Shown: positions 1,448 through 36,448 of the stretch, one piece after another
How positions within the stretch are numbered: position 1 is the stretch's first letter
Layout: each line of letters begins with the position of its first letter
Origin: Escherichia phage HEMP5
Sequence record: OR424388.1
Reading direction: 5' to 3' (one strand)
DNA: 64,000 bases
Notes under the pieces: generated by a model
Databases searched by the model: none
Told to the model about the DNA's origin: nothing
Seen by the model: only the letters and a program-made list of their open reading frames with translations
Position numbers and translations under genes: made by a program

Positions 1448-2472
1448 ATCTTAGCATATTTAGATAACCGCATTTTAGCCATCAACCCCTGAGCAATATT
1501 ATTTTTCATATATTCCATAATTTGTTCAGTGGTTGCACCTTCCTTTCTAATCATATCATTAACATCTTTTGATTTCCAGGGAGATTTATCCCAAAACATA
1601 ACCCTTTCTCCTGCATCAACTAATTTAGTCATTCGCTTAATAGTGTCAGGATGACGAGGTTCATTATCTAAAACCCACACACGTCTATCTTTAAATGGAA
1701 CAACTTCTAGGTCTAATTGACCACCTGTAATAGCTATACCATTTTCAATAAAAAGCGAATCTATAGGTCCTTCTAGAACATATACATCACCATCTTTGAC
1801 TCGTTCGACTCCATAGATTTTTGTTGCCTCAGGATAAGCTTTGATGGTGATATATTTTTGAGGAGCATCTTTCTTTAATGCACGTCCTTGAAAAGACTCA
1901 GCTTTTCCGTTAGCATTATAAATTGGAATAACAAGACGAGGCTCAGGTGTTTCCTTTTTATATGTTCCTGGAGCTATACTATTAACTAATTTAGGCCATT
2001 CAGTTGTAAACCAAAGATATTTCCATTTATCCTTTGGAATACAACGAGCTTTTACATATTTTATAATTGGATGGTCTTCCGCCAATTTATCTAATCTGAT
2101 GCATGACGGAAGAGATTTAATTATTTTCTTCTCAGGTTGTTTAGGAAGTTCTTTAGGTTTTTCTACTGGACGACTTTTACCTTTTTCTTTTCTTATTTCA
2201 AAGATATACTCACGATATAAATCAGGTTCAAACTCCTTTAAATATATTCCGATTGGTGCATGATAGTTACAGTTATAACAATGAATATTTCCTTCATTAT
2301 TATCGCCATAATACCATCCACGGGCTTTATTTTGATCGGTTTTTGAATCTCCACAAACGGGACATCTAAACCGTAATTTAAAAGTTGAACTATTATTTAC
2401 TTGTGCGAATTTAGGTAAATGAGCCAATGCACGGTATGCAAACTCATTATCAATCCAAGGTATTGATGACAT
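1444..2472 (-). CDS. 61: DNA primase, gene 61
   Basis: 342 aa. Starts MSSIPWIDNEFAYRALAHLPKF with zinc ribbon CPVCGDS...CYNC. Near-identical to T4 gp61 as remembered. Confidence 0.97.
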   Translation of the reverse strand: MSSIPWIDNEFAYRALAHLPKFAQVNNSSTFKLRFRCPVCGDSKTDQNKARGWYYGDNNEGNIHCYNCNYHAPIGIYLKEFEPDLYREYIFEIRKEKGKSRPVEKPKELPKQPEKKIIKSLPSCIRLDKLAEDHPIIKYVKARCIPKDKWKYLWFTTEWPKLVNSIAPGTYKKETPEPRLVIPIYNANGKAESFQGRALKKDAPQKYITIKAYPEATKIYGVERVKDGDVYVLEGPIDSLFIENGIAITGGQLDLEVVPFKDRRVWVLDNEPRHPDTIKRMTKLVDAGERVMFWDKSPWKSKDVNDMIRKEGATTEQIMEYMKNNIAQGLMAKMRLSKYAKI

Positions 2473-2640: not shown

Positions 2641-3267
2641 TTAACCTCTATTCATAAAAGCATTAAAAATTTGGTCATCAATAGAAACATCTACTTTAGA
2701 CTGTTTTTCTGATGGTAATTCATATCCACATATTACAATTTTGTGATCAATATCAAAATACACAGAAGCAATATGATTAATGATGTTTTCAGTAAAGTCT
2801 AAATCAACATCAATATCTTTTTGACCACAGCCCAAAGGATAAATAATGCGAGTAATTCGATTATCTTTAACAAAGATTCCACCGACATACTCTGTGCTGC
2901 GTTTAAAGTCTACACGCCAACGAAATGAAAAATATTCAGGCTCTTTATGAGCTCTGCTCATAGGACACAACGAGTAACTAGAATAAGAGATGTCAAATCC
3001 TACGCCTTCAATATGAGCCAAAGTATCATGATTAAACCAATTATAATCGTACGCCAAATCCATTAGATTATAATATGTAAAAGGCACCGGATTAACGTCA
3101 TTAATCACAAGCATGTAATTAGCAACTGCTATAATTTCATTGTTTTTAACGAATACAAACCGTGATTGATGCGAATGACCTGGACCCGCGTTTTCACGAT
3201 TAATGATATAACACTGGGCACCTTTATATTTGTATGTATCTTTGCACTTGTGCATTTGATAGAGCAT
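2641..3267 (-). CDS. 61.2: Conserved T-even early protein 61.2 (208 aa). To my recollection this is the family renamed AdfA (anti-DarT factor).
   Basis: ORF track, 208 aa. Size and position match T4 61.2. Confidence 0.8.
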   Translation of the reverse strand: MLYQMHKCKDTYKYKGAQCYIINRENAGPGHSHQSRFVFVKNNEIIAVANYMLVINDVNPVPFTYYNLMDLAYDYNWFNHDTLAHIEGVGFDISYSSYSLCPMSRAHKEPEYFSFRWRVDFKRSTEYVGGIFVKDNRITRIIYPLGCGQKDIDVDLDFTENIINHIASVYFDIDHKIVICGYELPSEKQSKVDVSIDDQIFNAFMNRG

Positions 3268-3560
3268 TATTCACCTACCACTTCAGCGATGATATTTTTA
3301 TTATTAAAGTTTTTATCGCAATACAGAACATAATTATACTGCATTACACCACCAGACTTAAGCTGTTTTTGCACTTCAGCTTTCATTTCGGGGCGATCGC
3401 GCTCAACGATATTCATAATATCTGCTTCAATTTGAGTTTCAACCTCAGTCTGATCCGCAGTCATAGACCATTCGCACAAATCTTTATCATAGCCTGCCAT
3501 GGCAGGTTGAGCAGCGCAAGAAGCTAAAGCAAAAATTGCAGCAAAGATAAATTTTTTCAT
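3267..3560 (-). CDS. sp: Spackle periplasmic protein (superinfection exclusion, inhibitor of the gp5 lysozyme)
   Basis: 97 aa with signal peptide MKKFIFAAIFALASCAAQPAMA. Position 61.3. Matches T4 Sp as remembered. Confidence 0.9.
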   Translation of the reverse strand: MKKFIFAAIFALASCAAQPAMAGYDKDLCEWSMTADQTEVETQIEADIMNIVERDRPEMKAEVQKQLKSGGVMQYNYVLYCDKNFNNKNIIAEVVGE

Positions 3561-3620
3561 GATAATCTCCTCGGTAGTTTATGTTTATATAATATCTCAA
3601 TTTCCAACAAAAGTAAATAG

Positions 3621-7153: not shown

Positions 7154-7996
7154 TTAATCAACTGCTATTGGATGAATAGCATTAAACTTATGAAATGCTT
7201 CTGATTTTTCTTTACGTGAAACGCACATGCGAAGAACCTTTAATGGCTCGTCTTCTTCACCCAACGATTTTCGTTTTTCAATATTAGAAGTTTTCCAACG
7301 AGCTTGCTCTGGAAACTCTCTATTGATTTGCTCAAGCGCTCTATTATGTTTAGAATTACTACGAATTGAACTGCACCCGCCAGGAGCTTGTGCTTTTCCA
7401 GATACAACCAGATATTTGAACAAGGCCAAATGCGGATAACCTTGATTAATTAAATTGAGAAATGCATACATATCTTCGCACAAATCAATTTTTCCATACC
7501 CAATTTGTTCTGTCGTAAGTTTTCCGAGGTCATACCATGTATTCGTGAATCCATATGAGTTTTCACGATAATTACCCCAAGATGAAGTAATTTTAAAAAT
7601 TGGTAGGCGAGCATGACCGTGATAATACCCGCAATCCATGGCATCTTCGACGTATTGAATCAATTCATAGAACTGTTCATGAGTCAATTGATTGACTTTA
7701 TCTACACAACGACGGTCATCTCTTTTTCGCATTGAACTCATACGAATAGTAGTATCATCGTCAATCATCCAGATTCGTTGACCTGCATACATATCAGTAA
7801 TTGCTTTACGAGTACCGGCAATTCCGTTTACATCATCAGGAATAGTTACAATTTTAGCTCTAGACCCATAGGCATCATAATAAGCTTTTTCTTCATGTTC
7901 ACGCACTACAATATGGGGTTCATAATCAGTCGGAAACATATCAAGGGCAGAAACTGCCCCGACACGCTGATAACTTGGAATTACGAATTGAATCAT
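7154..7996 (-). CDS. GT-A fold (DxD) glycosyltransferase at the b-gt position. Called as the T2/T6-type beta-glucosyl-HMC-alpha-glucosyl transferase (ba-gt).
   Basis: ORF track 7154..8002. The ATG at 7996 forms an ATGA overlap with the gene 42 stop and gives 280 aa. Contains motif IWMIDDDTTI. Lies between uvsX and 42, where T4 carries the 351-aa b-gt. Confidence 0.75.
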   Translation of the reverse strand: MIQFVIPSYQRVGAVSALDMFPTDYEPHIVVREHEEKAYYDAYGSRAKIVTIPDDVNGIAGTRKAITDMYAGQRIWMIDDDTTIRMSSMRKRDDRRCVDKVNQLTHEQFYELIQYVEDAMDCGYYHGHARLPIFKITSSWGNYRENSYGFTNTWYDLGKLTTEQIGYGKIDLCEDMYAFLNLINQGYPHLALFKYLVVSGKAQAPGGCSSIRSNSKHNRALEQINREFPEQARWKTSNIEKRKSLGEEDEPLKVLRMCVSRKEKSEAFHKFNAIHPIAVD

Positions 7997-8733
7997 TTCC
8001 ACTCACCTTTATAGTCTTTTTTCACAATATGAGTTTCGCCAGTATTCCACCAATGATCAACCAAGTAAAAATGACGAGAATATACATGAAGACTTCCGAC
8101 ATTCCATATAATAGAACCTGCTTTATACTGACGAGTTGAATCGCCGGCATTCAAATCAGATACTAATTTATCTAATACGTATTTTTGCCATGCATAATCA
8201 TTGCGGAATCCGAAGACCACGTCATTTGAGCGCATGCTTACTACTGCATTTACTTTCTTATCACGAATCAGGTACTGTACTGTATTAGTACACATGAAAT
8301 CTGACATACCATCTTTATTGTAGTCAAATTGCATGGATGGACGAGTATAAATCATGATACCACGCCGAGAATCAGGATTTTGACCAAGTTCAGCTAAACA
8401 CATATCATACTGGGCATAGTTATCTTCTGACCAAATAGCCCAACCATAATTCGAGTTAATTTCGCCTTTAGAAGATGCTACCTGCTGCCAAATCTTTGGT
8501 GTTTCACCTGGAATATCTTTAACAAACAAGCTCTTAGATTTATACCATTCAAGTTCGCGCTGAATGTATTCATCATTAAGAGCGCCAAAAATAAACGGTT
8601 CATCTGCTACAAATGATGCGCCAATAATTTCAATAGTTTTAACACCGGTTTTATCAACTACGAAATCTTTTTCTTTTAATGCAAGCCCCAAATGAAGACG
8701 GATTTCTTCAACTGTCATAGAGTCACTAATCAT
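7993..8733 (-). CDS. 42: dCMP hydroxymethylase, gene 42
   Basis: 246 aa, MISDSMTVEEIRLHLGLALKEKDF... Thymidylate-synthase-like. Matches T4 gp42. Confidence 0.97.
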   Translation of the reverse strand: MISDSMTVEEIRLHLGLALKEKDFVVDKTGVKTIEIIGASFVADEPFIFGALNDEYIQRELEWYKSKSLFVKDIPGETPKIWQQVASSKGEINSNYGWAIWSEDNYAQYDMCLAELGQNPDSRRGIMIYTRPSMQFDYNKDGMSDFMCTNTVQYLIRDKKVNAVVSMRSNDVVFGFRNDYAWQKYVLDKLVSDLNAGDSTRQYKAGSIIWNVGSLHVYSRHFYLVDHWWNTGETHIVKKDYKGEWK

Positions 8734-8740
8734 TTAAACC

Positions 8741-8890
8741 TCAATTGATACATTCATATTTAACTTGTAACAGTAATAAGCTCCAACCTAAAATAATAGT
8801 TGGAATCATAAGAGGAACCGTTACACTATAGTATATACTTATTATAATCATCAAGATTAAAAGCAACACTGTTATAATTTTGCTTTTCAT
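8741..8890 (-). CDS. Small membrane protein (49 aa)
   Basis: ATGA overlap with the upstream stop. Hand translation: MKSKIITVLLLILMIIISIYYSVTVPLMIPTIILGWSLLLLQVKYECIN. Two hydrophobic segments. Confidence 0.6.
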   Translation of the reverse strand: MKSKIITVLLLILMIIISIYYSVTVPLMIPTIILGWSLLLLQVKYECIN

Positions 8891-9138
8891 TCCTTCTCTC
8901 TGATGATAATTACCTGATTTGGTTGTGCAGACTTTTTAGTTTCACCCGCAATTGACCAAATAAATGTAATAAACCAACCAATAATTGACCAGTTAAACAG
9001 TAAAGACGTGAAAAAGATTCCTACTGTTGATTTTGACCCACGCATCAAGGCGATGAACCATGGAAGCATGTATATAATAATAGCCAACACACCTGAAACT
9101 AAAACCATAAAAATTGAACCTGCTACTAAAGTTTCCAT
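8887..9138 (-). CDS. imm: Immunity (superinfection exclusion) membrane protein Imm
   Basis: 83 aa with two transmembrane segments, between 42 and 43. Size and position match T4 Imm. Confidence 0.75.
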   Translation of the reverse strand: METLVAGSIFMVLVSGVLAIIIYMLPWFIALMRGSKSTVGIFFTSLLFNWSIIGWFITFIWSIAGETKKSAQPNQVIIIREKE

Positions 9139-9145
9139 GTTTTCC

Positions 9146-9526
9146 TCACTTAGTCAAATTTTTTACACATGAATTATAAGAATTCACTACATACTCCATC
9201 GGAGCATTTTTACCAGTACGCCATTGGTAATTATTAGCCCAATTAGCCCAAATTTCGGCGCAGTAGTTTTCAATTTTTTCTTCGCGTGTAATTACATCAG
9301 AATTACGATATGCTTGAGCAGATTCATCTGGACGAATAGCTTCGTCAAAATTCGCCTGCATTTGTTCGACTGTTTGCTTTGGAGCTTCTTTATAACACTT
9401 GACATTAGGATTATAAAACTTGCTTGAACAGTTTACAATTTTTCCTGCATCAGACTGATTTACTACCGGTCCTTGAGCTACACAACCAGTAAGACCTAAT
9501 GCAATAACCAAAATAGCGATTTTCAT
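9146..9526 (-). CDS. Predicted lipoprotein (126 aa)
   Basis: ORF track. Signal peptide with lipobox MKIAILVIALGLTGC. Mature part is cysteine-containing and hydrophilic. Confidence 0.8.
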   Translation of the reverse strand: MKIAILVIALGLTGCVAQGPVVNQSDAGKIVNCSSKFYNPNVKCYKEAPKQTVEQMQANFDEAIRPDESAQAYRNSDVITREEKIENYCAEIWANWANNYQWRTGKNAPMEYVVNSYNSCVKNLTK

Positions 9527-9536
9527 AATAATTTCC

Positions 9537-9773
9537 TCAAATGCAAGTAGTAATTACTCCAGTAGTGCTTATGCAGGTATTACCCATTTGCACACCTAAA
9601 GATCCATTTGTATTCGCATGAAGATTATCATCAATTTTAACTGATATTTTACCATTAGTGTGAATAACAGTGCTAGATTCAATCACAGGTTGAGTATCAT
9701 TTTCAACACTAACAAATGGAACTGCTGCTAATGCAACTAAACAAACTGCTAAGCATCCCATAACAATTTTCAT
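9537..9773 (-). CDS. Predicted secreted small protein (78 aa)
   Basis: ORF track 9537..9830, but its first 19 codons read through the promoter and leader. The ATG at 9773 follows GGAGAATAAA and gives MKIVMGCLAVCLVALAAVPFVSV..., a signal peptide. Confidence 0.7.
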   Translation of the reverse strand: MKIVMGCLAVCLVALAAVPFVSVENDTQPVIESSTVIHTNGKISVKIDDNLHANTNGSLGVQMGNTCISTTGVITTCI

Positions 9774-9810
9774 TTTATTCTCCAAATCCGTATCAGTAGT
9801 TGATAGTTGT

Positions 9811-9840
9811 ATAGTACCATGGAAGAACATTCTTGTAAAC
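9811..9840 (-). promoter_or_regulatory. T4-type early promoter (member of the conserved promoter-leader cassette family)
   Basis: Minus strand TTTTCACAAAACTGTTTACA-N17-GGTACTATACAACTATCAACTACTGATACGGATTTGGAGAATAAAATG. Confidence 0.8.
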
Positions 9841-9920: not shown

Positions 9921-9944
9921 TGAAAAAGGGACCCGGAGGTCCCT
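9921..9944 (-). terminator. Intrinsic terminator after gene 43
   Basis: Minus RNA AGGGACC-UCCG-GGUCCCU followed by UUUUUC, 13 nt after the gene 43 stop. Confidence 0.75.
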
Positions 9945-9956
9945 AGATTTATTCTA

Positions 9957-12653
9957 TCAGCCAAACAGGAAGTCTAACGAAGCTTTTTCTTCATAGTCCA
10001 TACCAGCTGATTCACACATGCCCGCAAGCGGTTTAACAAACGATTTTTGGAACAAAGTTGAGTAGTCAATCCAAGACAGTACGTCAGAACGAATTTCTTT
10101 TGGAAGTTCTGTACCCGACGGCCAAGCAATGCATTTGTCACCAAATGGATTTCCTTCACGCAATGGAAGAACCATTACTTTATTTCCATCCAAAATTGGA
10201 GCTACACCTAAACCGCTAACAGCTCGACGATAAGTTAGCACACCACGAATATGGAACGGACATTTAAATCCTGGCCAACCTTTATCATCATATTTCGCTA
10301 TATCGTTCGCAGTTTTTACTTCAGCAATAACTTTATAGTCGAGTTGACGATATTCTTTCTCGAAGTTCTTGTAATATTCTTGGACAGACTCTTCACCTTC
10401 CTGAAGAATACGACGAATACTTTCTTCGAGAGCTTCTTGGACCGCTTTGGGCGTTGAACTCTGCTGAGTTTCCATACCCATGATTTTTAGATGCGGTTCA
10501 GCAAATCGCTTATCTTCCATATCATAAACGTTCAGAGCATAACGCTTTTTCGCTTTCCAAAATCCACCAACGCCCTTTGAACCAAGTGGAGGGCAAGAAA
10601 TAGCTTCACGGTCCATATGCATCAGATGCTCGCGGTTATTCATATAATCACATAACTCACGATATGCAACATCAATCATAGGTTCCATCTTTTTCTTACC
10701 GAACTGATTCATGAATTCAACTAAATCGTTCTGCTCTTTGAATCGGTCAAGACCAACTTTTTCAATAACTTTATCTACACAAACATATACCGAATCAGTA
10801 TCACCTGCTGCGATGAAATCTTCGCCATTGGTTCCGCATACTTTATTCAGATATTCATTAATTTTACGAGCAATCCACTGAATACCAACTTGGCCGAAAA
10901 TTGTGATAGCAGTAGCATTTCGTAAATCATAGTAACGGAAATGAATATTACCAAGAGCACCATAAAGACTGTTAATAAGAATTTTACGGTTCAGCTGATT
11001 TGTATTAGCAAGTGTAGCCGCTTTTTCACATTCCTCAATCAGACTATTGAGAACAGATTCAGTATAATTCGATAGTTCATTTAAGAAATCATCACTGAAC
11101 TTAACATATCGTTCAACTTCAGGTTTAGTTGAACAAGACCCTGCGCCTTTCATAATAATCTTTTTAATAGCTTCGGCATTCATTTCTTCAGCGAACATTT
11201 TCTTTTTCCAATCTTTACGCTGGAAAAATACTTTAGCGATTTCCTTTGGAATGATACCTTCTTGATGCTTATCATACATCCATCCATTCGGAGAACAAGA
11301 ATATTCATCACTCGGTTTAGGAGCTGTTCCTGCGATATATTCATGAATTGGATGAACTTTAAACTGACCACGAATAGTCTCAGGACTAATGTTAACCTGA
11401 CGAATAATGCTAGGATACAGAGACGTCAAGTCAAAACTCATAATATATCGACGAGCAATTGGTTTAGGTTCAAATACAAATGCACCTGGAAAACTTTGTT
11501 TAACGTGCGAACCTTGTTGAGGAATAACCTTATGTTCACCTTTCAATGAGTTAAAAATAATAGCATCCCAGGTTTTAATAGGACTCATTACACCAGAAAA
11601 AGGCATTTTAGCGTAATAAGACATACTTAAAACTAGATCGATAAACCCGCGAATTTTATCAATTGCTTGAACTGATTCTACGTCAATGATGTTATAACTA
11701 ATATATCGTTGATGATTAGTCTCACGAAGTTTATTAATAGGACCGTCGTATGGTAATTTGCCCTTTTTAGTTTCATGCTGAGCAACTGATTCCAAAGAGA
11801 ATGACGGCAAATTAGTAAATGCGAATTTCTTATACAAATCTAAATAATCAAGAATAGATACGCCATCAATAGAATAAATTTCTTTGCTGCCGTACATATT
11901 TTGAATTAGTTTAGATTTTACCCGACCGATTGGAGAGAAGCGTTTCATACTGCGTTCACCGAGAACCATTTTAACGCGATTCATGATATACGGAACGTCA
12001 AATCCCTCAATATTCCAACCAGTAAAAATAGCAGGTCGTTTCTGTTCCCAAAGATTGATATATTCCATGAGCATATCGCGCTCATTATCGAATGGCATAT
12101 AAATTACTCGGTCAAGAATTTCTTGAGGAACTTCATCACCACCTTCACAGTCAAGCTTAGCAGCTAACTTTGCATCCCATTTTGATACTGAACCGTACAT
12201 TGAATTCAAAAGGTCGAAAACATAAAAACGATCATCAATTGAATCGTAATGAGTGATAGCATCAATTTCATATTCAGCTTTCATTGGGTCAGGAAATTTA
12301 TCACCAGTAACCTCAATGTCACAGTTAGCTACACGAACAAATTTTCGGTCATAAACAATTTCCGAACCATATGTATCACTGATATAAGCGAGTTTAAAAT
12401 CGTTCATACCGAGAGCTTCGAGACCGATGTCTTCCATTCGTTTCATCCAATCTCGAGCATCTTTCATTGATGGAAATTTTTGAGGAGCACAATTTTTACC
12501 ATAGATGTCTTTGTATTTTGACTCTTCCTTACAATGCCTAAACATAGTCGGAAGATATTCTACTTCACGAGTACGTTCCTTTCCGTTTTCATCAATATAA
12601 CGTTCAACAATGTTATTTCCGACTGTTTCAATAGAGATATAAAATTCTTTCAT
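9957..12653 (-). CDS. 43: DNA polymerase (family B), gene 43
   Basis: 898 aa, MKEFYISIETVGNNIVERYIDENGKERTREVEY... Contains the DxxSLYPS and YGDTDS polymerase motifs. Confidence 0.98.
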   Translation of the reverse strand: MKEFYISIETVGNNIVERYIDENGKERTREVEYLPTMFRHCKEESKYKDIYGKNCAPQKFPSMKDARDWMKRMEDIGLEALGMNDFKLAYISDTYGSEIVYDRKFVRVANCDIEVTGDKFPDPMKAEYEIDAITHYDSIDDRFYVFDLLNSMYGSVSKWDAKLAAKLDCEGGDEVPQEILDRVIYMPFDNERDMLMEYINLWEQKRPAIFTGWNIEGFDVPYIMNRVKMVLGERSMKRFSPIGRVKSKLIQNMYGSKEIYSIDGVSILDYLDLYKKFAFTNLPSFSLESVAQHETKKGKLPYDGPINKLRETNHQRYISYNIIDVESVQAIDKIRGFIDLVLSMSYYAKMPFSGVMSPIKTWDAIIFNSLKGEHKVIPQQGSHVKQSFPGAFVFEPKPIARRYIMSFDLTSLYPSIIRQVNISPETIRGQFKVHPIHEYIAGTAPKPSDEYSCSPNGWMYDKHQEGIIPKEIAKVFFQRKDWKKKMFAEEMNAEAIKKIIMKGAGSCSTKPEVERYVKFSDDFLNELSNYTESVLNSLIEECEKAATLANTNQLNRKILINSLYGALGNIHFRYYDLRNATAITIFGQVGIQWIARKINEYLNKVCGTNGEDFIAAGDTDSVYVCVDKVIEKVGLDRFKEQNDLVEFMNQFGKKKMEPMIDVAYRELCDYMNNREHLMHMDREAISCPPLGSKGVGGFWKAKKRYALNVYDMEDKRFAEPHLKIMGMETQQSSTPKAVQEALEESIRRILQEGEESVQEYYKNFEKEYRQLDYKVIAEVKTANDIAKYDDKGWPGFKCPFHIRGVLTYRRAVSGLGVAPILDGNKVMVLPLREGNPFGDKCIAWPSGTELPKEIRSDVLSWIDYSTLFQKSFVKPLAGMCESAGMDYEEKASLDFLFG

Positions 12654-34373: not shown

Positions 34374-34901
34374 TTATGCGAGTACCGTCTTTAACCGTTC
34401 TTCAAACTTCCGAAGAGTATTTTGGCGTTCAGCTCTTTGCTTTTTGTAAGTTTCAATACGCTCTGAAATGAGAGTGTATCGTTCATTTACTGATTCTTTC
34501 ATAAAATCAGGAATTTCACGAGAAGCTTTAATCTCGTCAAATTTATCAATAACAGCTTGCTCTTCAGCAATTAAGTTATCATACATTAAAATATCTTTCT
34601 TGATAAACTCAATATCTTCTTGAGTTACACGAGATAATTTAGATGCTTTATCCTTTTTGTACTGTTCGTTAGTATCACGAGACCAGTGTAATGTACGATT
34701 TTTATTCGTATTTTTGTAAATTTCTACAATACCGATCTCATCGATAATAACGATCCAATTCCAACGGGATTTGTAAATTTGTCCTCCATCAACAGTGATT
34801 TCACCTCCGATTGAGATGTCATTAAAGAACTTGCTTTGCGCTTCAGATTTAAATTTACCATCGTTGTAATTTACTAAGTTGAAAATATCTTTAGCGTTCA
34901 T
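34374..34901 (-). CDS. nrdC.8: Conserved hypothetical protein (175 aa)
   Basis: ORF track. GGAGGAACAGAAA Shine-Dalgarno after an early promoter. Confidence 0.8.
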   Translation of the reverse strand: MNAKDIFNLVNYNDGKFKSEAQSKFFNDISIGGEITVDGGQIYKSRWNWIVIIDEIGIVEIYKNTNKNRTLHWSRDTNEQYKKDKASKLSRVTQEDIEFIKKDILMYDNLIAEEQAVIDKFDEIKASREIPDFMKESVNERYTLISERIETYKKQRAERQNTLRKFEERLKTVLA

Positions 34902-34929
34902 TTTCTGTTCCTCCGTAGTTGATAGTTGT

Positions 34930-34959
34930 ATAGTACCACAGAGGAACAGTCTTGTAAAC
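34930..34959 (-). promoter_or_regulatory. T4-type early promoter (cassette family)
   Basis: Minus strand GGTTTACA-N17-GGTACTATACAACTATCAACTACGGAGG. Confidence 0.78.
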
Positions 34960-34961
34960 CA

Positions 34962-35264
34962 CTAAAAGAAACTTCTTTCACAATTTTTTCCACTGAACCA
35001 TGCGCTTACCGCTTTCTTAGTCTCAGGAGCAGTGTTATCCATAAACCATTCAAAGGCAGCCTTTTTATGATTCTGGAGGGCTTCTCGGGCTTTAATCTGC
35101 TCACGGTCTATTAACACTAACATATGAGCCTTTCTTGTCACCATGGGCTTCTTATGATTTTTTGAATACTCCCAGTCATTTGTCCATCGCATTGTCGTTG
35201 CGAACTTAAATACTGCTTCTTTAATTTTAGTTTCGTAAATTTCACGAGCCTTTGAGTATAACAT
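34962..35264 (-). CDS. nrdC.9: Conserved hypothetical protein (about 100 aa)
   Basis: ORF track 34962..35276. The ATG at 35264 has the best spacing from the GGAGG. Start uncertain by 4 codons. Confidence 0.72.
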   Translation of the reverse strand: MLYSKAREIYETKIKEAVFKFATTMRWTNDWEYSKNHKKPMVTRKAHMLVLIDREQIKAREALQNHKKAAFEWFMDNTAPETKKAVSAWFSGKNCERSFF

Positions 35265-35365: not shown

Positions 35366-36334
35366 TTATTTCAGAAGAGTAACCTCAGCAATTTCTTCCC
35401 AACCGTTTTTGTCGGTCATAATAAAGTCAGCAAGATAAAGAGCAGTACGCAGTGAAACATTGCGTAAACGATTAACATTAACTTTCATCCATGATAATGC
35501 TTTATAAGTTTCTTCATCAGAAAGACCGCGCTTTTGCATCATGTCAGTTGAAAGAATAACATCTTCAACCCTGACCATAATTTCTTCATTAGTGTGAACA
35601 CCCAAATCCAAATAAACCGAGCGGGACACTAATGCTTGTAAATGTGGAGCAAGTTTAGTACCACGGTCTAATTCGCGGTCAATGTCAACGTTTGTGATAA
35701 AAACAATCGTTCCTTTAAATTCAAACTCACGCTCAATGCCTTTTTCTTCTAAGTAAGAAGACGCAGTGCTCCAGCAGACTTTACGGGTCTCTCCGGTGTC
35801 CAGAGCAGCTTTCAGAAGATTAAGAATGTCCATATCAGAGAAAACATCCACATCATCAATCAAAAGGACAGAATTCTCTTCACGATTATTCCAAAGCTGT
35901 TCATAAAGACCAATACCAGAGATTTTACCATTAATGCTTTTATATTCAATGTATCCAATATCATTTGCTTTATTTAAAGCTTTATCTAAAGAATACGTTT
36001 TACCAATGCCTGCCGCACCAGAGATAATTAATGAACGAATGTTTCCGTTAATAATACCATTCGTCATCATTCCCATAACATTAAATCTTTTATTAATGCG
36101 GGTTTTCATATCTTCATACGATTCTTTAACTTCTTCAACTTTTACACCATCATATGAAATGTCTGATTTGTAAACCCAAACACCGCGACGTTTACCGTCA
36201 ATTTCAACAAAAACTTTACCATCTCCTTGTGCATCTACTGGAGCATTATCTGGGAACCATTCGCCTAAGAGCTCAAAAGTTCCAGAGATTTCTTTACCGA
36301 AGTAGATACCCTTATTGATAGTTACAGTTTTCAT
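35366..36334 (-). CDS. nrdC.10: AAA+/P-loop ATPase (322 aa)
   Basis: ORF track 35366..36478, but its first 48 codons are promoter and leader. The ATG at 36334 gives MKTVTINKG... Walker A GAAGIGKT, Walker B VLLIDDVD. Confidence 0.85.
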   Translation of the reverse strand: MKTVTINKGIYFGKEISGTFELLGEWFPDNAPVDAQGDGKVFVEIDGKRRGVWVYKSDISYDGVKVEEVKESYEDMKTRINKRFNVMGMMTNGIINGNIRSLIISGAAGIGKTYSLDKALNKANDIGYIEYKSINGKISGIGLYEQLWNNREENSVLLIDDVDVFSDMDILNLLKAALDTGETRKVCWSTASSYLEEKGIEREFEFKGTIVFITNVDIDRELDRGTKLAPHLQALVSRSVYLDLGVHTNEEIMVRVEDVILSTDMMQKRGLSDEETYKALSWMKVNVNRLRNVSLRTALYLADFIMTDKNGWEEIAEVTLLK

Positions 36335-36368
36335 TTTATTCTCCAAATCCGTATCAGTTGATAGTTGT

Positions 36369-36398
36369 ATAGTACCATAAAGCTTTATGCTTGTAAAC
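36369..36398 (-). promoter_or_regulatory. T4-type early promoter (cassette family)
   Basis: Minus strand TTTTTTCACAAAATTGTTTACA-N17-GGTACTATACAACTATCAACTGATACGGATTTGGAGAATAAAATG. Near-identical to the copy at 9774-9860. Confidence 0.8.
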
Positions 36399-36420
36399 AA
36401 TTTTGTGAAAAAATTTTTGA

Positions 36421-36448
36421 AATAAAAAAGGGAGCCCGAAGGCTCCCT
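36421..36448 (-). terminator. Intrinsic terminator with UUCG loop after nrdC.11
   Basis: Minus RNA AGGGAGCC-UUCG-GGCUCCCU followed by UUUUUAUU, 1 nt after the stop. Confidence 0.8.

Follow-up and report, generated by a model that had tools for sequence, protein, structure and literature searches.

The imm locus of Escherichia phage HEMP5: a conserved lipoprotein gene next to the superinfection-immunity gene and its possible role in exclusion

T5 Llp and lambdoid Cor are outer-membrane lipoproteins that block the FhuA receptor and act in superinfection exclusion, and Ltp of Streptococcus phage TP-J34 is a membrane-tethered lipoprotein that reportedly blocks DNA injection by acting on the tape-measure protein of the incoming phage. 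Among the T-even phages, T4 encodes Spackle (Sp), which inhibits the gp5 tail lysozyme in the periplasm (PMC7677548). Here we describe the surroundings of another exclusion gene of these phages, imm, in a 64,000-nucleotide stretch of DNA from Escherichia phage HEMP5 (OR424388.1; this whole stretch is hereafter called the window), with emphasis on imm.1, the putative lipoprotein gene that directly precedes imm. An original prediction, made without database searches, had read the four tightly packed open reading frames (ORFs) at positions 8,741 to 9,840, which encode proteins of 78, 126 (Imm.1), 83 (Imm) and 49 amino acids (aa), as a single envelope cassette expressed from one early promoter.

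The described counterpart of this locus is the imm.1-imm region of T4 (NC_000866, T4p046 and T4p045, between genes 43 and 42), which has the same terminator, early promoter, imm.1, imm and 49-aa ORF, with gene 42 immediately after. Unlike the window, T4 has no 78-aa gene, and the 49-aa ORF is unannotated in the T4 RefSeq record; the doubt expressed in the original prediction as to which of the four ORFs T4 itself carries is thus resolved. A 1.4-kb query around the region finds sequences of 100% identity in Escherichia phage Paracelsus (Bas36) and two Yersinia T4-like phages, and in all it matches 519 phage records, nearly all of them Tequatrovirus. Judged by these matches, the window phage is a Tequatrovirus. 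The region corresponds to the classical imm locus of the T-even phages and forms the part of an early transcription unit nearest to its promoter.

The imm.1-imm pair in T4-like phages

We propose, at a probability of about 0.5, that Imm.1 works together with the inner-membrane protein Imm in superinfection exclusion, with the locus read as an early transcription unit; the proposal is drawn from sequence comparison. Imm of the window matches the Pfam family PF14373 with 58.2 bits (cutoff, 27.9; E = 7.7e-16), is identical to Imm of T2 and T6, and shares 82 of its 83 residues (99%) with T4 Imm. Hydropathy analysis detects two hydrophobic segments, at residues 1-34 and 39-65. By this family match, the product of imm is the inner-membrane superinfection-immunity protein of the T4 Imm family.

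Imm.1 matches the Pfam family DUF5481 with full-length coverage (235.1 bits; cutoff, 27); it is identical to T4 Imm.1 at 122 of 126 residues and shows 97-99% identity with the T4, T2 and T6 proteins. Its short, basic and hydrophobic N-terminus, MKIAILVIALGLTGC-V, contains a canonical lipobox, LTGC, with the cysteine at position 15 and valine at +2, in agreement with the pattern [LVI][ASTVI][GAS]C. Both this lipobox and the two transmembrane segments of Imm had been called in the original prediction, and motif and hydropathy analysis bear them out. The lipobox is retained in the relatives P0005, P0006 and P0007 as well as in the lipoproteins of five other genera discussed below, and Asp occurs at +2 in no relative. 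Within the window, only two ORFs of at least 50 aa fit the lipobox pattern (the early-gene strand has at most 129 such ORFs), namely those for Imm.1 and Spackle; the N-terminus of the latter, ALASC, matches a relaxed form of the pattern.

A word-indexed search yielded only three near-identical clusters of Imm.1 homologs, and six turned up when 1.84 billion representative proteins were searched exhaustively with HMMER, so that the family is confined to T4-like phages; there was no match for Imm.1 in plasmids. The AlphaFold2 model of Imm.1 reached a predicted local distance difference test score (pLDDT) of 56.8 from the single sequence and 64.7 from an alignment of 6 sequences. In this model, a poorly predicted mature N-terminal stretch of about 35 residues precedes a helical domain, and the C-terminal hairpin made by the last two helices, with the conserved cysteines C89 and C120, has a pLDDT of about 87. 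Foldseek comparison of the model found nothing below E = 3 in the PDB and only members of the same family in BFVD, and a PDB profile search with Imm.1 returned nothing meaningful. The T4 RefSeq record labels imm.1 'iduronate sulfatase', which looks like an annotation error.

A synteny comparison of the interval between genes 42 and 43 across T4-like genomes, which had been put forward as a check of the original prediction, shows imm.1 and imm as a fixed pair, with two modular genes around it: the one that fills the slot between the promoter and imm.1 (in the window, the 78-aa gene) and the 49-aa ORF that follows imm (gene 42.1). The imm.1 gene lies immediately upstream of imm in the window, in T4, T2 and T6, in Mosigvirus and in the relatives L014, L016 and L017, and in all five lineages of DUF5481 the gene immediately after it encodes an Imm_superinfect protein. 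The genes for P0005 and P0007 sit between 43 and 42, and that for P0004 lies behind an Frd3-like gene. In Mosigvirus, the pair has been relocated, the order being dmd, imm.1-like gene, imm and spackle (sp), with 42.1 left near gene 43.

In five genera without a detected DUF5481 protein, imm is also flanked by a gene for a lipobox protein (146-174 aa). This gene lies upstream of imm in Gelderlandvirus, Karamvirus and Jiaodavirus, and downstream in Dhakavirus and Gaprivervirus, where the order is imm, 42.1, lipoprotein gene. The flanking lipoproteins of all five genera have in common the motif G.VV...EVGK just past the lipobox cysteine and two cysteines in the C-terminal part. When mature sequences were compared with hhalign, the alignment between DUF5481 and the flanking lipoproteins spanned the whole mature length with both cysteines aligned, at a probability of 50-54%. 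A profile comparison that included the signal peptides aligned only the first 30 columns and was discounted as a reflection of signal-peptide composition.

As a control, 80 loci encoding Imm relatives were collected from IMG/VR with an Imm alignment as the query. A lipobox ORF on the same strand within 250 nucleotides (nt) of imm was found in all 14 contigs of T4 size, vs only one of the 66 others.

Proposed role of Imm.1 in superinfection exclusion

The locus is headed by a dispersed, recombination-prone early-promoter cassette of the PeSL type (see below), located after the gene 43 terminator, which drives expression of the slot gene, imm.1, imm, 42.1, 42 and ba-gt, in this order. According to the proposed mechanism, Imm.1 would be lipidated and sorted to the outer membrane, a localization suggested by the lack of Asp at +2 in the relatives, and, acting from the periplasmic or outer-membrane side, would help Imm stop the delivery of DNA. 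Its target would likely be common to all T-even infections, that is, either the incoming tail-tube and DNA-delivery apparatus or the envelope site that it uses. The 78-aa protein and the 42.1 product would be separate accessory envelope proteins. The original suggestion that the lipoprotein is a candidate for an additional exclusion function is reasonable in that its gene stands beside imm in every lineage examined and that T4 imm.1 is classed as early at both the RNA and the protein level in time-resolved omics data (PMC9697503, supplements).

As an alternative, Imm.1 could be a receptor-blocking lipoprotein of the Llp/Cor type that binds an outer-membrane receptor from the periplasmic side and either stops adsorption or protects the progeny. 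Like Llp and Cor, it is a small, early, phage-encoded lipoprotein predicted to reside in the inner leaflet of the outer membrane, and the analogy with Llp (PMC9586334) speaks for this explanation. The protein receptors of the T-even phages differ, with T2 using FadL/OmpF, T4 OmpC and T6 Tsx. Given that Imm.1 is nearly invariant among these three phages at the identity level cited above, a receptor-specific block is unlikely, and the receptor masking that the original prediction had entertained for the lipoprotein is disfavored. Furthermore, unlike the genes for such receptor blockers, imm.1 is linked to imm and not to the genes for receptor-binding proteins, and no similarity of Imm.1 to Llp or Cor in sequence or fold was detected in Pfam, PHROGs, NCBIfam, a PDB sequence search, or Foldseek searches of PDB and BFVD with a model of moderate quality. 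We therefore consider a receptor-blocking Imm.1 very unlikely.

Closer parallels to an Imm.1 that acts jointly with Imm are provided by proteins directed at the incoming phage. Ltp is the closest analog of the mechanism suggested here, being a lipoprotein that reportedly blocks DNA entry rather than masks a receptor, although it comes from a temperate phage of a Gram-positive host and has no detected similarity to Imm.1. Spackle, like Imm.1, is an early, exported, helical, cysteine-containing small protein; it targets a phage-side component common to T-even phages, and in Mosigvirus its gene directly follows imm. Unlike Imm.1, Spackle belongs to the family PF25676, shows no similarity to Imm.1, and is encoded in the window about 5.3 kb away from imm under its own early promoter. 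The sp gene was located at 3267-3560 on the minus strand (Pfam T4_Spackle, E = 5.5e-45), with a promoter of the same consensus at 3589-3617.

Several considerations weigh against a joint action of Imm.1 and Imm. In the work of Lu and Henning in 1989, Imm alone, expressed from a plasmid, reportedly gave exclusion. Imm also scores as protective in a gene screen (PMC12373910). If Imm alone excludes, a partner is not strictly required. DUF5481 and the flanking lipoproteins of other genera are only probably homologous, judging from the alignments described above, and no more than about four or five lineages stand behind the 14 IMG/VR loci. Simple inheritance may account for some of the synteny, the 43-42 region being collinear core genome. 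One relative, P0004 (L017, 718-1086), has an ordinary signal peptide (...SAHA|SD) in place of the lipobox; such a protein would be soluble in the periplasm and not lipid-anchored, and its gene is still located beside imm. The structural model is modest (pLDDT 64.7) and has no informative structural neighbors, and literature searches for a function of imm.1 or DUF5481 returned nothing relevant.

Some of these points fit an explanation in which Imm.1 has an envelope role unrelated to exclusion, such as stabilizing the outer membrane or peptidoglycan while infection proceeds, timing lysis, or countering an envelope-based host defense, and its gene adjoins imm for historical reasons. An exclusion phenotype has never been assigned to Imm.1, Imm alone reportedly excludes, and gene order in the 43-42 region is broadly collinear among T4-like phages. 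Against a purely historical adjacency, the pair has moved jointly to the vicinity of spackle in Mosigvirus and has been kept adjacent in the rearranged order of Dhakavirus and Gaprivervirus, while its neighbors, 42.1 and the slot gene, underwent gains and losses or were not carried along. An unrelated role is a real possibility, if a less probable one than cooperation of Imm.1 with Imm. A broader version of the cooperation model, in which Imm would have a conserved partner in the outer membrane, a lipoprotein of the Imm.1 type, in all T4-like phages, the two forming a two-membrane, two-protein immunity device with the lipoprotein directed in the periplasm at the incoming tail tube or DNA conduit and Imm active at the inner membrane, is suggested by the same comparisons and is offered only tentatively.

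Transcription unit, slot gene and gene 42.1

The gene order in Paracelsus is regA, gene 43, three genes for hypothetical proteins interrupted by that for Imm, gene 42 for dCMP hydroxymethylase, the gene for beta-alpha-glucosyltransferase, and uvsX; all these genes lie on the minus strand of the window. The features of the locus, together with the counterparts of the 49-aa ORF in T4, T6 and T2, are listed in Table 1. The ORFs are as tightly packed as originally described, with gaps of 10 nt between the 78-aa ORF and imm.1 and of 7 nt between imm.1 and imm, the start/stop overlap of the 49-aa ORF with imm, and a Shine-Dalgarno sequence at each gene. Hydropathy and motif analysis gives envelope-targeting features in each of the four products, again in line with the original prediction.

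Table 1. Features of the imm locus in the window and counterparts of the 49-aa ORF in T-even reference genomes
Feature	Sequence	Position	Strand	Remarks
Gene 43, DNA polymerase	Window	12653..9957	-	
Intrinsic terminator after gene 43	Window	9927..9944	-	7-bp GC-rich stem, 4-nt loop, T run
Early promoter	Window	9811..9840	-	-35 GTTTACA, 9840-9834; extended -10 TGgTACTAT, 9819-9811
78-aa ORF (ORF-A, phrog_4189)	Window	9537..9773	-	GGAG Shine-Dalgarno 8 nt upstream
imm.1, 126 aa	Window	9146..9526	-	Pfam DUF5481; lipobox LTGC
imm, 83 aa	Window	8887..9138	-	Pfam PF14373 (Imm_superinfect)
49-aa ORF (ORF-D; gene 42.1 of RB32; phrog_3610)	Window	8741..8890	-	Start overlaps imm stop as ATGA
Possible MotA-type middle promoter inside 49-aa ORF	Window	8841..8865	-	TGCTTTT, 12 nt, TATAAT; read from sequence
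Gene 42, dCMP hydroxymethylase	Window	7993..8733	-	7 nt after 49-aa ORF stop; ba-gt next
Unannotated 42.1	T4 NC_000866 (L001)	3228-3377		
Unannotated 42.1	T6 (L012)	about 1712-1868		
Unannotated 42.1	T2 (L013)	about 1863-2019		

All four ORFs belong to PHROG families and are found in 325 (78-aa ORF), 656 (imm.1), 1001 (imm) and 747 (49-aa ORF) phage records. The pairwise ratios of nonsynonymous to synonymous substitution rates (dN/dS), calculated against the diverged Tequatroviruses JoYop, HY03, PBM-1, CT01 and T4, are in the range of 0.35 to 0.42 for the 78-aa ORF, 0.03 to 0.08 for imm.1, 0 to 0.06 for imm and 0.19 to 0.38 for the 49-aa ORF. Thus, all four ORFs are coding, with imm.1 and imm under strong purifying selection and the 78-aa ORF being the least constrained. 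No paralogs of the four proteins were found inside the window. In NCBIfam, there was no meaningful match for any of the four, with one sub-threshold match to YidC for Imm.1, and no Pfam family was found for the 78-aa or the 49-aa protein.

The promoter, TTTACA-N17-TACTAT (9839-9811), with TGG preceding TACTAT, fits exactly the consensus of the T4/PST early promoters (PeSL), TTTACW-N17-TAYWAT (PMC4122927). The window contains 16 matches to this consensus, all on the minus strand, vs 0.39 expected, which also provide a ready map of candidate early promoters for the 64-kb segment. Transcription is predicted to start near position 9804. A generic sigma-70 scan detected promoter-like sites only at chance frequency in this AT-rich DNA, so the promoter call rests on the T4-specific consensus and on conservation. 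The GTTTAC...TACTAT arrangement precedes the equivalent genes in T4, T2, T6 and three metagenomic relatives and, with a variable spacer, is also present in Mosigvirus, Gelderlandvirus, Jiaodavirus, Karamvirus and Dhakavirus. In the relatives that carry a slot gene and in these five genera, the -35 and -10 elements are kept while the spacer varies; the single mismatch between the promoters of T4 and the window is in the spacer. The gene 43 terminator upstream is likewise kept in T4, T2, T6, L014, L016 and L017.

A block of about 90 nt that includes the promoter, 5' untranslated region (5'UTR), Shine-Dalgarno sequence and ATG is repeated nearly identically on the minus strand at 34884-35009, 36323-36448 and 50963-51088. 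This repetition of the promoter along with its leader and start codon makes the term 'cassette-type' apt, and the single cassette-type early promoter named in the original prediction is supported by the consensus fit, the conservation and the dispersed repeats. The promoter copy at 34930-34958 shares its spacer with the T2 version of the imm.1 promoter. It is plausible that the dispersed blocks serve as substrates for the insertions and deletions (indels) in the slot. The described PeSL cassettes (PMC4122927, PMC2839356) are similar in the exact consensus, in the dispersed repeats with the 5'UTR, and in the position at the border of a gene slot that differs between close relatives; they differ in that the terminator stem-loop of the window is located about 90 nt upstream of the -35 element and does not form one compact motif with the promoter.

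The slot gene of the window is confined to Tequatrovirus (325 records). Its 78-aa product has a hydrophobic N-terminal stretch at residues 1-25, with lysine at position 2, a hydrophobic run of about 21 residues, the sequence ALA|AV at positions 14-16, and a C-terminal pair of cysteines; from this architecture, it is predicted to be a small exported or membrane-anchored protein. The hydrophobic region is long and in other strains carries 7-aa duplications, features that would be compatible with an uncleaved membrane anchor as well. In several strains, tandem 7-residue duplications of the LVALAA type lengthen the hydrophobic N-terminus from about 21 to 28-35 residues (window 9700-9773), and one variant of the protein is devoid of one cysteine of the C-terminal pair. 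UniRef labels one variant 'Lipoprotein'; this assignment was rejected for the window protein, in which Cys11 is preceded by LAV, a sequence that does not make up a lipobox, and is too close to the N-terminus. Also rejected was the 97-aa form annotated in Paracelsus: the respective ATG sits inside the promoter spacer and is not conserved in T4, JoYop, HY03 and PBM-1, so 78 aa is the real length.

In T4, the 78-aa gene is missing through a clean 247-bp indel bounded by the repeated sequence ATGAAAAT, which is the start of both the 78-aa gene and imm.1, such that the promoter and Shine-Dalgarno sequence are fused straight to imm.1. The slot is empty in T6 as it is in T4. In T2, it holds a gene for an unrelated, soluble 83-aa protein (31 records have the T2-type gene), which is labeled 'tail tape measure protein' in the T2 record, apparently an annotation error, and in the metagenomic relative L017, the slot is occupied by a gene for an unrelated, soluble Frd3-like protein. 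The T4-type Imm.1 is present in about 501 Tequatrovirus records, compared to 325 with the 78-aa gene and 31 with the T2-type gene; hence the slot is empty, as in T4 and T6, or has other content in the rest. Decayed copies of the 78-aa gene include a fragment flanked by a duplicated promoter piece in CT01, a truncated gene in CrRp10, and the frameshifted copy P0021. In Shigella phage CT01 (L010, 1013-1470), the promoter is followed by the 5' portion of imm.1 and a fragment from the 3' end of the 78-aa gene, then by another incomplete copy of the promoter and 5'UTR, and finally by the complete imm.1, an arrangement that looks like the footprint of recombination between genomes with a filled and an empty slot. 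By its faster evolution, patchy presence and decay, the 78-aa gene is marked as a dispensable accessory gene.

Gene 42.1 encodes a 49-aa protein that is hydrophobic almost throughout and is predicted to be a small membrane protein, and its ATGA overlap with imm, already recognized in the original prediction, is confirmed. The gene is intact in T4, where 47 of the 49 residues (96%) are identical to those of the window protein, and in T2 and T6, and is unannotated in all three. Across four genera, the protein shows 43-55% identity and the invariant motif IY.S...P.MIPT...W...LQ...C.N. In Mosigvirus, Winklervirus and Kanagawavirus, 42.1 lies downstream of gene 43 behind a gene for arabinose-5-phosphate isomerase, and there is no imm in the vicinity. 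Besides this isomerase, the interval behind gene 43 in these phages (Mosigvirus: L006, Shf125875) encodes a protein of about 560 aa and a phosphoheptose isomerase, and the 42.1 homolog is translationally coupled to the isomerase gene that it follows; presumably, these sugar-metabolism genes are part of the DNA arabinosylation pathway of the RB69-like phages. At the examined imm loci of Gelderlandvirus (S16), Karamvirus, Jiaodavirus and the relative L016, 42.1 is absent. The possible MotA box and TATAAT inside 42.1 are identical in T4, and this MotA-type site could, with low confidence, be a middle promoter for gene 42.

If the 78-aa and 49-aa ORFs were not genes, having arisen by chance or being non-coding regulatory DNA, this would account for the omission of the 49-aa ORF from the T4, T2 and T6 reference annotations, for the possible middle promoter inside it, and for the lack of a Pfam family for either. 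This possibility is extremely improbable in view of the identity and the invariant motif of the 49-aa protein across four genera and, for both ORFs, of dN/dS values well below 1, Shine-Dalgarno sequences and PHROG families.

No terminator was found between the 49-aa ORF and gene 42, which begins only 7 nt further on and in turn overlaps the gene after it, and therefore the transcript must run on into gene 42, a gene of nucleotide metabolism, and ba-gt. This continuation bears on the strongest form of the original prediction, in which the four ORFs would make up one functional envelope cassette, with each product involved in exclusion or receptor masking. The shared promoter, the packed or overlapping genes and the envelope features of all four products agree with it, as does the clustering of imm, 42.1 and a lipoprotein gene in Tequatrovirus, Dhakavirus and Gaprivervirus. 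However, besides extending into a gene of nucleotide metabolism, the unit has a slot gene that is absent from T4 and T6, is replaced by unrelated soluble proteins in T2 and L017, and occurs in decayed copies, and a 42.1 that in three genera is found without imm and at four of the imm loci named above is missing. A functional cassette of all four genes thus seems unlikely: the single promoter and the envelope features stand, whereas the functional unity does not, and the early transcription unit that includes the fixed pair imm.1-imm is the preferred reading of the locus.

Implications for T-even superinfection exclusion

As the classical T-even imm region, the locus is already known, given that all its ORFs have been deposited and belong to cataloged families, and, as the original prediction had it, Imm is the only one of the four products with a known role. 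The present analysis adds a corrected gene map, in which 42.1 is recognized as unannotated in T4, T2 and T6 and the annotated 97-aa start of the slot gene is placed inside the promoter, and separates the modular parts of the locus (the slot gene and 42.1) from the fixed pair of imm.1 and imm. We found no discussion of the linkage between the lipoprotein and Imm in the searchable literature.

With this linkage, the long-standing problem of how Imm prevents the entry of DNA becomes slightly more tractable. If Imm.1 indeed acts together with Imm, the T-even phages would have in it their first lipoprotein exclusion factor, and one that does not act by masking a receptor. Should the two proteins form an immunity device that spans both membranes, it would be understandable that the mechanism of Imm by itself has been obscure since 1989.

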